NCBI GenBank assembly: GCA_043808095.1
Contig: JAZDFF010000035.1
Location: forward strand, 1 to 57,204
Length of the DNA stretch: 57,204 nucleotides
Source of the DNA: Candidatus Omnitrophota bacterium
Lineage (GTDB): Bacteria > Omnitrophota > Gorgyraeia > JAZDFF01
Direction of reading: 5' to 3'
How positions within the stretch are numbered: the first letter of the stretch is position 1; each line of letters starts with the position of its first letter. The notes beneath the pieces were generated by a model, which saw only the letters and a list, made by a program, of their open reading frames with translations, was not told the origin of the DNA and searched no databases. Below, piece after piece: positions 3,376 through 57,156 of the stretch. The position numbers were made by a program, and so were the translations under genes.

Positions 3376-3522
3376 AAAGAGCACATAACTTATGGAACCT
3401 TTGATTAACTGAAGCGACGTAAGTTATATGTGCGAATTGGACCCTTGACATCGAAGATGTCAAGAGGTAAATTCGTGCAAACAATTTACGTTCACTATCG
3501 TTCCATAAATTGTGCACTCATT
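3376..3522. repeat. Multi-stem palindromic element, AATGAG/CTCATT family, copy 1
   Basis: Shares blocks GCGAATTG, cttgacat...atgtcaag, TAAATTCG, cactatcgttcc(a/g)taaattgtg with 24249-24547 and 34449-34672. Confidence 0.75.
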
Positions 3523-4973
3523 TACTTCCCAATGCAAAACTCCCCAAAAATTCTATCTAATATATCTTCGCTAGTCGTCTCGCCGGTTATCTCGCCTAAG
3601 GAGTCGAGTGAGCCTTTAAGGCAATAAGCAATCAGTTCTAAAGACTGCCTATTTTTGATCAAGTCTGCCGCTTCCTGTAAGTCCAAAAGCGCCCTTTTTA
3701 AGGCATCAATGTGCCGCGCGTTAGAAACCAGGGCCTCATCAGTAGCTATTATATCACCTTGCCAGATTTTTTTAAGTATTTGTTTTCTTAAATTATCCAG
3801 GCCTTTTCTTTCTAGAATAGATACACGCACTACCTGTTTAAATATCTCCCTTATTTTTTCGGGGTTGATTTTTTGCGTAAGGTCAATCTTATTAATCAGG
3901 GGGATAGTCTGTTTGTCCTTGGTCCTTTCTATAAGAAGGTAATCATCTTTAGATAATCTTTGGCTACCATCGAACAATAAAAGGACTAGGTCCGCCTCAT
4001 TTAATGATTTCTGGCTTTTTTGCACTGCCTTTTTCTCGATTAAATCCCGAGGCTCAAGAACGCCGGCAGTATCAGTTATCTTTAAAGGCACGCCTTCTAA
4101 GTTTATGACCTCTTCAATCACATCGCGGGTAGTCCCGGCGATAGGCGTTACAATGGCCCTGTCTTCTCCTAAAAGGGCATTTAAAAGCGAGGACTTACCG
4201 ACATTGGGTTTTCCGCAGATGACCGCGCTTATCCCCTCACGAAGGATCTTGCCTTGTTGGCCAGAGTCAATCAGGCCAGTTAATAATTTTTCCTTTTTTT
4301 CTATTTGCTTTAATATTTTTTGCCTTGGAAAGGATTCAATATCCTCATCGGGAAAATCTATTAGGGCCTCGAGGCGGGAAAGTATATAAAGGACCTCCTC
4401 TTTAGCCTCTTTTATTTTAAAGGATAAGGCGCCGCTTAGTTGATTGTAACCCACTTTCAAAGAGGCCTCGGTCTTGGCGCGGATAATATCTAAGACCGAC
4501 TCTGCCTGAACCAGGTCAATCCGGCCATTTAGAAATGCCCTCTTGGTAAATTCACCCGGTTCGGCAAGGCGCGCGCCATGGCCTAATACCAACTCCAGAA
4601 TCTTTCTTAAAGGAACGATCCCGCTGTGACAATTTATCTCTACAATATCCTCTTTGGTATAGCTCTTGGGCGAGCGCATTATTGTCAAAATAACCTCATC
4701 AATAATATCAGTCGATGGTCGATGGTCTATAGTCCGTCGTTTTTTATTTTTTTTCTGGTTTCTGTACTCTGGTTTCTGGTTTCTATCAATAATCCTTCCA
4801 TAATGCGTGGTATAGGTCTTAAACTCTGAAGGCCTGTTTCCGTTTCTGCCCACAAAAATTTCATCGGCAATCGCCAGGCTTTTTTTACCGCTGAGTCTCA
4901 CTATCCCAATACCCGCCTGTCCAATAGGGGTTGAAATCGCGGCAATAGTATCGTTTAAATCAATTTTTTTCAT
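3522..4973 (-). CDS. mnmE: tRNA modification GTPase MnmE (TrmE)
   Basis: DTIAAISTP, GEFTKRAFLNG, GKPNVGKSS, GTTRD, DTAG, NKID, C-terminal FCIGK. Confidence 0.97.
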   Translation of the reverse strand: MKKIDLNDTIAAISTPIGQAGIGIVRLSGKKSLAIADEIFVGRNGNRPSEFKTYTTHYGRIIDRNQKPEYRNQKKNKKRRTIDHRPSTDIIDEVILTIMRSPKSYTKEDIVEINCHSGIVPLRKILELVLGHGARLAEPGEFTKRAFLNGRIDLVQAESVLDIIRAKTEASLKVGYNQLSGALSFKIKEAKEEVLYILSRLEALIDFPDEDIESFPRQKILKQIEKKEKLLTGLIDSGQQGKILREGISAVICGKPNVGKSSLLNALLGEDRAIVTPIAGTTRDVIEEVINLEGVPLKITDTAGVLEPRDLIEKKAVQKSQKSLNEADLVLLLFDGSQRLSKDDYLLIERTKDKQTIPLINKIDLTQKINPEKIREIFKQVVRVSILERKGLDNLRKQILKKIWQGDIIATDEALVSNARHIDALKRALLDLQEAADLIKNRQSLELIAYCLKGSLDSLGEITGETTSEDILDRIFGEFCIGK

Positions 4974-19734: not shown

Positions 19735-20102
19735 TTAAATATCAAAAAGCAAACATCAAAATGACATATCAAAATTCAAAAAATTAAATAAAAAAGATGA
19801 ATGGAAAAAGATAAAGAGTATTAAAATTTTTAATTTTACATTGTCCCGAATGTCGCTATTCTTAGTAGTGTAACTTCGGGATCCCGTCCCGAATGAATCA
19901 ACCGCTTCTGTATAGCTTCGGGATCCCGATGATTTACTTCTACGAATGGCTTCTTTCGGGAAAGAATAACCTAAGAAATTACTACATTCGGGATAATTTT
20001 GATCTTTGCCCTGAGAAATTCGCAGAATTTCCAGGACTAAGTCTCTGAAATTGCCTGCCCGCAGGGCGAGCAATTTCTAGGGGCACTTTGATTTTTACAT
20101 TG
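19735..20102. repeat. Heptamer-type inverted array (atcaaaa/ttttgat) with two nested insertions
   Basis: Left arm 19735-19782; right arm interrupted by 19843-19994 and ~20009-20083. Confidence 0.7.
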
Positions 20103-22342: not shown

Positions 22343-22440
22343 AACACGAATGAACACTAATCATACACGAATAAACACGAATTTGTCATCGGAATTTATT
22401 CGTGAGAATTGGTATGCAATTCGTGAGAATTCGTGCATTA
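22343..22440. repeat. ACACGAAT / ATTCGTG inverted array
   Basis: 4 acacgaa-type units, then 4 attcgtg-type units. Confidence 0.75.
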
Positions 22441-24248: not shown

Positions 24249-24547
24249 AATGAGCAGATAATTTATGGAGTTTGCAGAACGACATAAATTATAGGACGTT
24301 AGTCCGTCTGCGAATTGAATCCCCACACCAACTTTTGTAATAAGGCTAGAGGTATAGAATTAGTTTTAATTACAAAATTAACCTTCTAACTGAAACCCCA
24401 TACCCTTTCAAAAGTTGGTGTGGGGGTAAATTCGACCAGCAAACTTACGTTTCCGCCTACGCTTAAAATCAGCTTCGGCGAGATCTCGCCAAAATTGCTT
24501 TAAGCAATTTTGGCGGACACTATCGTTCCGTAAATTGTGTCTTCATT
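24249..24547. repeat. Multi-stem palindromic element, AATGAG/CTCATT family, copy 2
   Basis: Terminal aatga/tcatt, long central stem ccccacaccaactttt/aaaagttggtgtgggg, nested TCCGCC/GGCGGA hairpin. Confidence 0.8.
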
Positions 24548-25514: not shown

Positions 25515-25856
25515 TTATATCTCTGTCTTTTTGACTAATTGCCTGTAATATTCAATGCATCTATGGCAGGTTTTTTGATCCTCTTTCCATTGAGGGTGAT
25601 CTTTTTTAATCAGACCCAACAGGTATTCCTCTGCCTTGACATGGGCAAGGGCAACGTTTTCATCGATTTCTCTATCGCATATCTGGCACCTGTATTTGCC
25701 TTTTCTGGCTCCCTGAATCGGCGGCGCGCTTTTCTGGCCCTCGCATTTATTGCAGGTATCAGAACCCTGACTCGAGACCCTTACCTTAAATAGACTGCGA
25801 GCAATATTACCTAAGATGCCTTCTAATGGGACATTGCAAATTTTGCATCTGCGCAT
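25515..25856 (-). CDS. Small protein with four CxxC motifs (two putative Zn sites)
   Basis: CKIC...CNKC and CQIC...CHRC; ATG 25856 with GAGGAG. Confidence 0.7.
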   Translation of the reverse strand: MRRCKICNVPLEGILGNIARSLFKVRVSSQGSDTCNKCEGQKSAPPIQGARKGKYRCQICDREIDENVALAHVKAEEYLLGLIKKDHPQWKEDQKTCHRCIEYYRQLVKKTEI

Positions 25857-25903
25857 TTTTATCTCCTCAAATGAGCCCCTACGCATCGTCGGGGTAATGC
25901 ATT

Positions 25904-27037
25904 TTATTTTCTCTTATTTTTTGCTTTCTTCACTGAATCTGCGCTTTTAATTATCTCTTTAAGATAATTTATGGGTACGGCGAAATTTAAATTTTGGACA
26001 AACCCCCAGCTGGCTAAGGTAGCAATCCCAATAACTTCACCAAATTTATTAAAAATCGGGCCTCCGGAATTTCCGGCGGAAAGTGCGGCGGTTATCTGAA
26101 ACAATTTCATTTTACCTTTACTTCTGATCGCGCTGATCAGCCCTTCTGAAATGGATAACTCAAGACCCATGGGATTTCCTATGGCAAAAATCCTTTCACC
26201 CGCCTCGGATTCATCCGAATCTCCGATAAATAGAGGCATGAGTTCTTTAGCTTCAACTTTTAAGACCGCTATATCCTGCTCAGGGACCCCCTTCACCAGA
26301 AACGCATTTATATAGGTATCATTATTGATCTTTACCTTAATCGAATAGGCATCCTGGATAACGTGAAAATTCGTAACAATAAAACCATTGTTGTTAACCA
26401 CAAATCCGCTTCCTAATCCGAGCTGTTCGTTATTCTTATCATAGGTGTTAATGGTGAGAATTCCTTTGCTAAAATTTTTAATAATTTCCGGGGCTTTTAA
26501 TTCTCTTCTTGATCTTTTATTTAAGACTGAAAGCCTCGCTTCTTCTAATAATGACTGCGGCAATTTTGAAATATAGGTAGTCCTCCTGGGCTGGTTGATC
26601 ATCTCATAAATCCTATCTACTGCCGGACGGCTAACCAGTTTAATATAACTTTTCTTAACAATTACAGGGATAATTAAGAAAGTGGCTCCAAAGACAACAG
26701 TCAATATAATCTTGGTAGAGCGTGAAAATCTTGCGCCCATCCAAAGAAGAATAATACCCAAAGGCGGCACAAATACTAATAAAAGCGAAACCACCCATCT
26801 TCTGAAAAACCATTTAATCTTTTTTTCTTTAAATACCTGTGTCAAGAATATAAAAATAAACCAACCTGCCACGGCAAATAAACTTAGCCAAATTAAATCT
26901 TTGTATGACCGGTCTAAAGAAAATGCGGTTTCAATTAGACCCCTGAGCCAGTAAAAAAATACCAGGCCGCTCATTATGGGATGCTCAAGGATCTTTCTTT
27001 TTAGCCAAGACGCATGTCTTTTCAGTGCCCTTCTCAT
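25904..27037 (-). CDS. Membrane-anchored trypsin-like (S1C) serine protease, no PDZ
   Basis: GSGF, TNFHV, DIAVL, GNSGGP; 4 N-terminal TM. Confidence 0.9.
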   Translation of the reverse strand: MRRALKRHASWLKRKILEHPIMSGLVFFYWLRGLIETAFSLDRSYKDLIWLSLFAVAGWFIFIFLTQVFKEKKIKWFFRRWVVSLLLVFVPPLGIILLWMGARFSRSTKIILTVVFGATFLIIPVIVKKSYIKLVSRPAVDRIYEMINQPRRTTYISKLPQSLLEEARLSVLNKRSRRELKAPEIIKNFSKGILTINTYDKNNEQLGLGSGFVVNNNGFIVTNFHVIQDAYSIKVKINNDTYINAFLVKGVPEQDIAVLKVEAKELMPLFIGDSDESEAGERIFAIGNPMGLELSISEGLISAIRSKGKMKLFQITAALSAGNSGGPIFNKFGEVIGIATLASWGFVQNLNFAVPINYLKEIIKSADSVKKAKNKRK

Positions 27038-29367: not shown

Positions 29368-29503
29368 TAAATCCTAAACCCAAAACCCTAAATTCTAAAT
29401 AACTCCAAAATCCTAAATCTAAAATTATTCTTATTGTTGAGTTTTAAGCTTTGGGTTTGGAACATTTGAATTTATTTAGGGCTTAGAGTTTAAGATTTAG
29501 GGT
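29368..29503. repeat. Heptamer inverted array (aatccta/tttagg)
   Basis: aaatcctaaa...ccctaaattctaaat left arm; atttgaatttatttagggcttagagtttaagatttagg right arm. Confidence 0.75.
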
Positions 29504-33516: not shown

Positions 33517-33700
33517 TATACAAGAAATAAGTGATAGTTTTGGACTCGTTTTGTAGTTATTTTAGTATGTTGTGGAGTAACGAACAGGGATGCAAAAGAA
33601 AATTTAAACCGCAAGGTTAAAAACACTCTCCTTGCGGTTTTTATATTCGTCCGCCACTAAATAATGGCGGACTCATTAAAGGAGGTGAATTAAATAAGCA

Positions 33701-33907
33701 ATGAGTAAAGGTAAAGTAAAGTGGTTTAGCAATCAGAAGGGCTTCGGTTTTATCGTCACCGAGGATGGCAAGGATGTATTCGTGCATCATACTGCTATTC
33801 AAGGAGAGGGTTATAAAACTTTGAACGAGGGCGAGGCAGTAGAATTCGAGATCACTCGCGGCCCAAAAGGCGACCAGGCTACCAACGTAGTCAGGTCAGG
33901 TAATTAA
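33701..33907 (+). CDS. cspA: Cold-shock protein
   Basis: GKVKWF, KGFGFI, DVFVH, GPKG.QA.NV; AGGAGG RBS. Confidence 0.96.
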
Positions 33908-33956
33908 TCCTCAAAATATTCTTTTAGGATTTTCGAGGTCTAAGTAAAGCAGAAAG

Positions 33957-34179: not shown

Positions 34180-34434
34180 TTAGGGGCTGACTTTATAGAC
34201 CTTGTCGTGAGGATGGACTTTCTGTCCTAATTTAATGCCGATGAAATCTCCGGCCTTGGCGTCAGGAACATCTTTATGCTCAATCTGGATTGAGTCTATG
34301 GTCTGGTTAAAGTCTGAGGAATGGCCCTTGATATGGATGGTATCGCCTACCTTTAAGACATCGCTTAATTCAATAATTCCTACATTGATGTGCCCATAAA
34401 AATGGGTGATAGAACCTACTTCTTGTTCTGGCAT
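34180..34434 (-). CDS. Small translation-elongation-factor-like beta-barrel protein
   Basis: VG.ITHFY..I.VG, LKVGD.I.I.G, S.QIEH..V..A..G..IGIK. Confidence 0.85.
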   Translation of the reverse strand: MPEQEVGSITHFYGHINVGIIELSDVLKVGDTIHIKGHSSDFNQTIDSIQIEHKDVPDAKAGDFIGIKLGQKVHPHDKVYKVSP

Positions 34435-34448
34435 ACCCCACCTCCTTT

Positions 34449-34672
34449 AATGAGCAGACGACTTACGCAGTAAAACGACGTAAGTTGTAGTCCCGGCGAT
34501 ACGTCGGGACGTCTGCGAATTAAATTCTTGACATTTACCTAAAAATATTTAATTCAAGGTAGATGTCAAGGATCAAATCCAACCACCAGACTTATGTTTC
34601 CGCCACTAAATATTAGGCGGACCCGCCAATGATTTGTGGCGGGCGCTACGCTCCATAAGTCTGGGTTTCATT
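34449..34672. repeat. Multi-stem palindromic element, AATGAG/CTCATT family, copy 3
   Basis: aatgagcaga...gtctgcgaatt...cttgacat/atgtcaag...tccataag...ttcatt. Confidence 0.8.
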
Positions 34673-56950: not shown

Positions 56951-57156
56951 AATGAGCCCCGACGATACGTCGGGGCGAATTGACCCTGCACTTATTTCAC
57001 TTTCGATGCCGGATTATTTTTATATATTAGTTTATCCCGTTAACTCCTATTCTTTAAAATCGAAACTTTTTATTGAAATAAGTGCTGGGTAGGTTCGGAC
57101 AAATAAGTTATGTCACTTAAATTCTTAATATAGGGTTCCATAACTTATGTCCTCGC
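56951..57156. repeat. Multi-stem palindromic element, AATGAG/CTCATT family, copy 4
   Basis: aatgag-ccccgacg..cgtcgggg-cgaattga, cacttatttc/gaaataagtg stem, gttccataactt. Confidence 0.7.

Follow-up and report, generated by a model that had tools for sequence, protein, structure and literature searches.

Several families of short, structured repeats and small mobile elements of bacteria invite comparison with the elements analysed here. The REP, BIME and REPIN systems are known from Enterobacteria and Pseudomonas; BIMEs are mosaics with conserved linkers that lie between the genes of operons, much as our elements do, and REP/BIME repeats are hot spots for specific insertion sequences, with a targeting of the IS1397 type that recalls the behavior of an IS200-type guest described below. 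IS200/IS605 elements and PATEs resemble our elements in their hairpin-based ends and in the absence of target duplication, and a further likeness lies in the cleavage rules of IS608, which is cut beside a short specific motif. The Correia/NEMIS repeats of Neisseria and the ERIC sequences are structured, tolerated in operons and able to alter expression. Classical MITEs carry the long terminal inverted repeats of an identifiable insertion sequence and a fixed-length target duplication. Two more families are taken here from the sections of a single source that treat them. MIRUs are intercistronic in polycistronic operons, have ends that overlap the adjacent stop and start codons and are found at both filled and empty orthologous sites; their direct-repeat units measure 40-100 bp, are often tandem and contain small ORFs, and filled sites show tetranucleotide direct repeats (PMC3184786). 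Chunjie, a MITE of Geobacter, has 21-bp TIRs and 9-bp direct repeats, and the operon MITEs that it stands for are like our elements in being non-coding, highly structured, co-transcribed, tolerated in operons and able to supply or alter expression signals (PMC3184786).

The repeat family of this locus, whose unit we call the arm, is closest to REP/BIME/REPIN sequences in its behavior and closest to MIRUs in its placement. With REPs and REPINs it shares short palindromic units, tens of dispersed copies, inverted pairs around a spacer and no target duplication. It departs from them in its unrelated sequence and different phylum, in pentamers and an inner box that are conserved across a phylum and not within one species group, in an exact placement from a stop codon to the Shine-Dalgarno sequence (SD) or start of the next gene, and in the presence of nested GIY-YIG genes. 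Like MIRUs, the elements have ends that overlap the flanking stop and start, and at one locus (L050) they provide a new stop and a new start; unlike MIRUs, they are dyad-symmetric, multi-hairpin mosaics of 125-310 bp with no visible duplication. Their terminal repeats measure only 5-7 nt, and the elements fail the classical MITE test because they show neither long terminal repeats nor duplication. We give a probability of roughly 0.6 to the reading that the elements described below represent a palindromic mobile DNA repeat, non-autonomous and of the REP/BIME/REPIN type. The literature, supplementary files excepted, yielded no description of the arm family, nor of GIY-YIG-associated palindromic repeats in bacteria.

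The window, by which we mean the whole stretch of 57,204 nucleotides that was analysed, is contig C35 of a 1,636,259-bp genome in 42 contigs with 41% G+C (G000, the host genome), and its genes lie mostly on the minus strand. The initial annotation had placed four long and two short copies of a branched palindrome in it, each ending directly before an SD. Re-read on the sequence, these coordinates are exact, and all six CTCATT-type ends stand 0-4 nt ahead of an SD-like motif. On the minus strand, which is the mRNA-sense strand, the four long copies follow one common scaffold: a stop-proximal AAATGA(G/A) terminus, the hairpin H1, CGAATT, H2, AATTCG, H3 and CTCATT. The two short forms are one hairpin followed by CTCATT. 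The upstream end, on which the initial annotation needs correcting, is equally precise, with the terminus of the element overlapping or touching the stop codon of the preceding gene. A long copy is a near-palindrome, with CTCATT facing outward at both ends and H1 resembling the reverse complement of H3, so that orientation specificity cannot be judged from full copies. Each window copy is a palindromic mosaic with no tandem unit.

Element B (24249..24547, minus strand) lies between an unnamed 217-aa gene and yqeY. Read from its start-side end, it comprises the CTCATT terminus (24249-24254), H3 (24255-24310), the junction with the minus-strand reading AATTCG (24311-24316), the long-looped H2 (24321-24426), the second junction (24429-24434), H1 with small hairpins nested inside it (24435-24541) and the stop-proximal terminus (24542-24547), which includes the TGA stop of the 217-aa gene (24543-24545), all on the minus strand. 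Element A (3376..3522, minus) separates mnmE from folE; its terminus overlaps the TAA stop of mnmE (3522-3524, minus), and its start-side end is indeed the variant CTCTTT that had been noticed ahead of the folE GTG (3376-3381, minus), followed directly by GGAG and the GTG start. Element C (34449..34672, minus) lies upstream of an 84-aa gene with its start at 34434; it has CTCATT at 34449-34454 (minus), and its other terminus reads TTCATT on the plus strand (34667-34672). Element D (56951..57156, minus) precedes the PilZ gene; its start-side arm (56951-56981) is canonical, its center long and AT-rich, and its far arm degenerate. Short form E (25870..25903, minus) follows the TAA stop of a protease gene (25904-25906) and begins with a palindromic AATGCATT remnant; its hairpin (25876-25894) and CTCATT (25870-25875) are followed downstream by an SD (25863-25868) and an ATG (25854-25856), all on the minus strand. 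Short form F (33645..33677, plus) is a solo arm in the cspA leader, made of ATTCG (33645-33649), a hairpin (33650-33671) and CTCATT (33672-33677) on the plus strand, with an SD next and the ATG of cspA at 33701. Pfam bears out the names that had been given to four of the downstream genes (GTP cyclohydrolase I for folE, YqeY, PilZ and the cold-shock domain for cspA); the 84-aa gene matches EF-Tu domain 2 only below the cut-off, and Pfam returned no family for the 112-aa downstream gene. In the mechanical list of open reading frames, folE and the 25515 gene begin with ATGs internal to the repeat (3384-3386 and 25884-25886); the SD-preceded starts, GTG at about 3368 for folE and ATG at 25856 for the 25515 gene, are more likely.

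The arm consists of the pentamers AATTC and TCATT around a hairpin, and a full element is a dyad-symmetric mosaic of two inverted arms around a variable central hairpin. The closing pair and outer stem of the arm hairpin vary freely, and the inner stem keeps an A(A/C)(C/T)TTA(C/T)G box. Searching for AATTC...TCATT plus a simple hairpin test recovers 58 arms in the genome versus 2 in the reversed genome; an exact 12-nt motif plus hairpin gives 34 versus 1 in the control. A strict regular expression for the full element finds only three, and pairing arms by exact motifs fails because stop-side arms are variant. Among the 58 arms, the bases just inside the two pentamers, following AATTC and preceding TCATT, covary (G..C 34, C..G 11, A..T 8, non-pairs 5). 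A fixed 5'/3' polarity, in which CGAATT versus TGAATT would reflect a U·G wobble, was considered and ruled out: the difference is this same covariation of the closing pair, and two elements have their variant arm on the SD side. The fillers of the hairpins are a handful of recurrent modules, exchanged among copies and nested in one another. The suggestion that internal stems are swapped or extended with compensation holds, modules being combined differently from copy to copy throughout the genome.

The arm family occurs across Omnitrophota. A 16-base one-arm pattern is present in 205 of the 301 genomes sampled from the class, often with 10-45 matches per genome versus 0-2 for the reversed pattern (27 in the host genome, 42 in G016 and 45 in G071), and in 162 of 251 genomes sampled from the phylum, other classes included (49 matches in G380). 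With a narrower pattern, at least 114 stretches were found in a set holding one genome per species of all bacteria and archaea. Among 80 listed public contigs, 65 are titled Omnitrophota, Omnitrophica or Ca. Kappaea, and the other 15 bear depositor labels such as 'uncultured Planctomycetia' or 'bacterium'. Such a phylum-wide conservation of flanking pentamers and inner box is unusual for REP-like repeats, and could reflect a function for the host.

Copies of the element have been gained or lost at orthologous sites. The comparison genomes include none from the family of the host besides the host itself, its nearest relatives being members of the same class, and seven element-bearing loci were compared between congeneric genomes, with flanks 73-85% identical. 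At five of the seven, the site is filled in one genome and empty or collapsed in the other, four being filled versus empty (L026, L030 and L050 against G055; L032 against G073) and one full versus collapsed. The empty site of L026 is a TAA stop, three bases and an ATG, and the filled one has 167 nt from TAA to ATG, with no SD in either state. At L050 the stop and the start overlap in a 4-nt TTGA when the site is empty; in the filled state the element stands between TGT and TG, leaving AAA-TAA upstream and supplying the A of a new ATG downstream. At L032 the preceding gene ends on one side of the element and a pre-existing AAGGAGG follows on the other; L030 has a partial element, composed of H2 and one arm, with TAAA before it and GGAG after it. 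L033 holds a full element in G073 and a single hybrid hairpin in G041, in which the 5' half of H1 is joined to the 3' half of H3 at their common TTACG box. The element is present in both genomes at L036, and at L028 the arm element of G041 is matched in G073 (L244, G073:C1, about 324016-324180) by an unrelated 165-nt word-array repeat, which likewise ends at the SD of the neighboring gene. The four filled/empty pairs show no consistent target duplication and the four empty sites no clear common target sequence, and in 23 full elements the left flank is independent of the right one. Public sequencing runs were matched as well (no RNA run, one weak DNA match, with a share of 0.15, plus two runs of the same study), and the groundwater metagenome contigs of these three runs hold short pieces of repeat modules and mosaic joints, with no clean empty site.

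The SD was also considered as a part of the element, which is ruled out: it is already there in the empty orthologous sites, and thus belongs to the flank. Copies occupy the stop-to-start junction of tightly packed genes, with a stop codon at one terminus and a pre-existing SD or start at the other. In the host genome, the ends of the 58 arms adjoin an SD plus start in 28 cases, a start without SD in 7, an incoming stop codon in 8 and something other in 15; the same classifier applied to 4000 random intergenic-like positions returned 24, 89, 185 and 3702, respectively. That is, 35 of 58 arms adjoin a start region, versus 2.8% of random intergenic positions. In the sample of other genomes (76 arms, after leaving out 9 of the 85 found that were too near the end of a locus) the corresponding counts are 31, 16, 5 and 24. 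Some of the ends classed as other adjoin tRNA ends, in the host genome and in the other-genome sample, where these are tRNA 3' ends. Where the preceding gene runs in the same direction and ends no more than 700 nt away, its stop codon often lies inside or against the far terminus, which then reads TAAATGAG, AAATGAAG or TAAGTGAGG, with TAA or TGA stops falling within terminus words such as AAATGA and AAGTGA.

These data separate two ideas that the initial annotation had joined, a mobile element that targets ribosome-binding sites and an orientation-specific targeting. The former is favored by the existence of filled and empty sites and by a frequency of copies at gene starts that far exceeds chance, and is qualified in so far as many contexts are SD-less starts, stops or tRNAs and the SD is flank. 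Orientation specificity is not borne out in its strict form and is reduced to a statistical polarity: the canonical motif is kept by the start-side arm in 35 cases versus 8 for the stop-side arm among the 58 arms of the genome, and in 47 versus 5 among the 76 arms of other genomes. We attribute this polarity to selection for in-frame stops at the upstream end, and a start-side arm that is more canonical than the stop-side one would also fit a role in RNA.

The preferred reading of a mobile DNA repeat offers a plausible account of why copies end next to an SD. In a nearly spacer-free genome, the insertions that survive would be those that keep the stop of the upstream gene and leave the start signals of the next one intact, and TAA/TGA-rich termini could themselves supply the upstream stop; some targeting of the stop/start junction may be involved too. 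Once co-transcribed, the insert would fold on itself and leave the SD single-stranded. Smaller hairpin modules, a GIY-YIG gene or an IS200-type element can nest inside a full element. As to movement, the absence of duplication, the TTAC box, the TTACG joint of the collapsed site and covariation restricted to Watson-Crick pairs hint that copies might move as single-stranded hairpin DNA, through an HUH/Y1-type enzyme acting in trans.

Another explanation is that of a functional intercistronic RNA, co-transcribed with the operon, whose multi-hairpin fold would either shield the flanking cistrons from RNases or draw the stop of the upstream gene close to the start of the next, with terminating ribosomes re-initiating in a shunt-like coupling across 150-300 nt. 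Much of the material above could be read that way: the element reaches precisely from the stop codon to the SD or start, the arm motif persists over the phylum, the start-side arm is better kept than the stop-side one, and downstream genes can be SD-less with or without an insert, as at L026 and L050 and at the SD-less starts of 7/58 and 16/76 arms. In addition, the termini can pair (AAATGAG with CTCATTT) and one strand of the arm hairpin carries a tandem G-A/G-A motif. It is in the nature of the pairing that this explanation meets a difficulty. We aligned 109 distinct arms from other genomes as a two-helix hairpin; the pattern used to find them constrained the termini and a portion of the inner box and left the covarying columns free. 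Stem covariation is strong, as had been proposed for this element: 98.2% of 1417 stem cells are paired, versus 83.5% in shuffles (reached by 0 of 500) and 21-35% in slid controls, and 247 cells are changed on both sides, versus 85.5 in shuffles (again 0 of 500). Were the constraint on an RNA read from a single strand, G·U intermediates should be tolerated and A·C ones should not. In these 1417 cells, pooled over transcription directions, G·U occurs 18 times and A·C 19 times, a near equality that fits a constraint on DNA pairing and disfavors an RNA motif. The arms of the host genome, with their two classes summed, show 32 G·U on the mRNA-sense strand versus 20 on the other, a weak and mixed signal, and in both classes the strand running from AATGA to GAATT is the more stable one.

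Other observations go in the same direction. The strand with the tandem G-A motif is antisense in 47 of the 76 sampled arms; the pairing between the two junctions is left uncompensated when one side varies (for instance GAACTT versus AATTC); and copies are dispensable at orthologous sites and occur at tRNA ends and in other contexts. At gathering score, Rfam 15 matches only two tRNAs in the window, and at E up to 1 it finds nothing on the four long copies, which agrees with the earlier view that no known RNA family is involved. The view that the family is a structured 5'-UTR RNA motif is not supported, since the copies are intercistronic, number in the tens, are dyad-symmetric, come and go between congeners and show no G·U excess. 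A functional intercistronic RNA is, in our opinion, unlikely. A sub-threshold match to the Rfam cspA thermoregulator (61.5 bits against a gathering score of 78) covers 33565-33935 on the plus strand of the window, spanning the leader and the gene of cspA and overlapping short form F.

A second explanation would turn the relationship between repeat and guest around, the elements being gene-less derivatives of a GIY-YIG cassette whose nuclease drives a homing-like spread, and the copies in the window having lost the gene. Three complete cassettes exist, each with a GIY-YIG gene of 88-90 aa, preceded by an SD of its own, in the H2 loop between two arms. The one in the host genome (G000:C1:157518-157970) has arms on both sides and an H2 stem of the CCCACACCAA type, which is also that of element B; the one in G039 (L192) encodes a protein close to it and has the same H2 stem; and the one in G073 (L029) lies upstream of clpP, with a reading frame that continues through the junction into H3. 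Each of the 61 genomes searched moreover has small GIY-YIG genes, often more than one. None of the six window copies contains such a gene, and of 29 high-scoring small GIY-YIG loci in the class a single one has arms on both sides, many others lying just after tRNA genes or in other repeats. This rarity, together with the fact that arms are found solo and with several unrelated types of H2, makes the nuclease look like a further invader of the central hairpin, and we regard a descent from the cassette as rather doubtful. Two more small GIY-YIG genes of the host genome were seen outside the arm family (G000:C5:44966-45178 and G000:C40:9765-9980), one between two tRNA-like copies and the other between direct repeats of about 85 nt.

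A bolder proposal would make of the arms the recognition modules of a phylum-wide system that places DNA into stop/start junctions, splitting 4-nt overlaps and rebuilding both stop and start, with the folded insert acting as an mRNA 'shunt' for SD-less re-initiation across 150-300 nt. We hold this to be improbable.

We come back to the mobile repeat and to the enzymes that may act on it. The only assembled Y1 gene of the host genome (G000:C31:73723-74064, L001) is a single 217-aa RAYT-like gene flanked by inverted copies of a different repeat, of the AATTCCGGGGACACG type, which is also found at two contig ends. Among the Y1-transposase loci of the class, 0 of 30 have arms on both sides, with one single, chance-like match; the absence of an arm-flanked RAYT sets the family apart from REPIN-RAYT systems. 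Taking together the 30 Y1 loci and the 29 small GIY-YIG loci of the class, no mobilising enzyme could be tied to the arms.

The relationship of the arms with IS200-type elements is of another kind. Many contig ends of the host genome are ends of a multicopy IS200-type insertion sequence that is internally unassembled (for example at the 5' ends of C17, C19, C26, C31 and C33, and at those of C15, C23, C24, C27 and C38). At no fewer than seven contig ends its right end (a hairpin, then …TTTAC) is followed by TTCG, H3 and CTCATT, with a gene start after CTCATT in six of the seven and, at C25, 170 bases that stop inside H3. At no fewer than nine, H2 and GG(N)T(Y)(Y)AA stand ahead of its left end. 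From these contexts, with H2 and AA on the left and TTCG on the right, the insertion falls between the AA and the TTCG of the arm junction, and the element is co-oriented with the next gene. The same arrangement is found in a genome of another family, G026 (L218, on G026:C35); eight other IS200-type copies of the class sit elsewhere (L214-L217, L219-L222). The resident insertion sequence ends in TTTAC and the inner stem of the arm has TTAC, which is a point of likeness, and the collapsed site is joined exactly at TTACG; its left and right end hairpins are unlike those of the arms, and it sits in the arm junction as a guest. That the arms are instead landing pads, kept by the host or by insertion sequences as a protected and harmless IS200-type target, seems to us very improbable, because the at least nine left and seven right ends at arm junctions and their counterpart in G026 would account for the insertion sequence and not for where the repeats come from, how many there are or why they sit at junctions, most arms are without it, the other copies of the class lie elsewhere, and G073 has 13 arm matches yet no Y1 match at E 1e-10.

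Genomes of Omnitrophota are small and densely packed, yet tens of these repeats per genome sit where inserts are tolerable. The arm family explains the 'structured' look of many of their intergenic gaps, and, left unmasked, arm repeats will lead searches for regulatory RNAs astray and bias the calling of gene starts. Junctions in both states, SD-less ones included, constitute a natural experiment on the amount of structured RNA that can be absorbed by a translationally coupled pair of genes. The three nested layers of arms, GIY-YIG gene and IS200-type element are concrete substrates for finding the enzyme that recognises the hairpins.

Other repeats share these genomes with the arm family. A second multicopy insertion sequence occupies many contig ends of the host genome (for example C2, C3, C12 and C37, and C6, C8, C11 and C42), with a transposase fragment that we take to be a DDE-type C-terminus; its ends adjoin arrays of short ATTAGG-like words, which form a separate repeat family. 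A repeat made of ATTCGTG-type words and ending in TTCATT, outside the arm family, lies at 22349-22382 of the window, with further copies in the host genome at G000:C2:602-705, C15:4388-4421, C20:68483-68585 and C20:75573-75678. Finally, 19737-19782 and 29369-29418 of the window show depth spikes and many loose ends in the groundwater metagenome contigs, which points to further short dispersed repeats.
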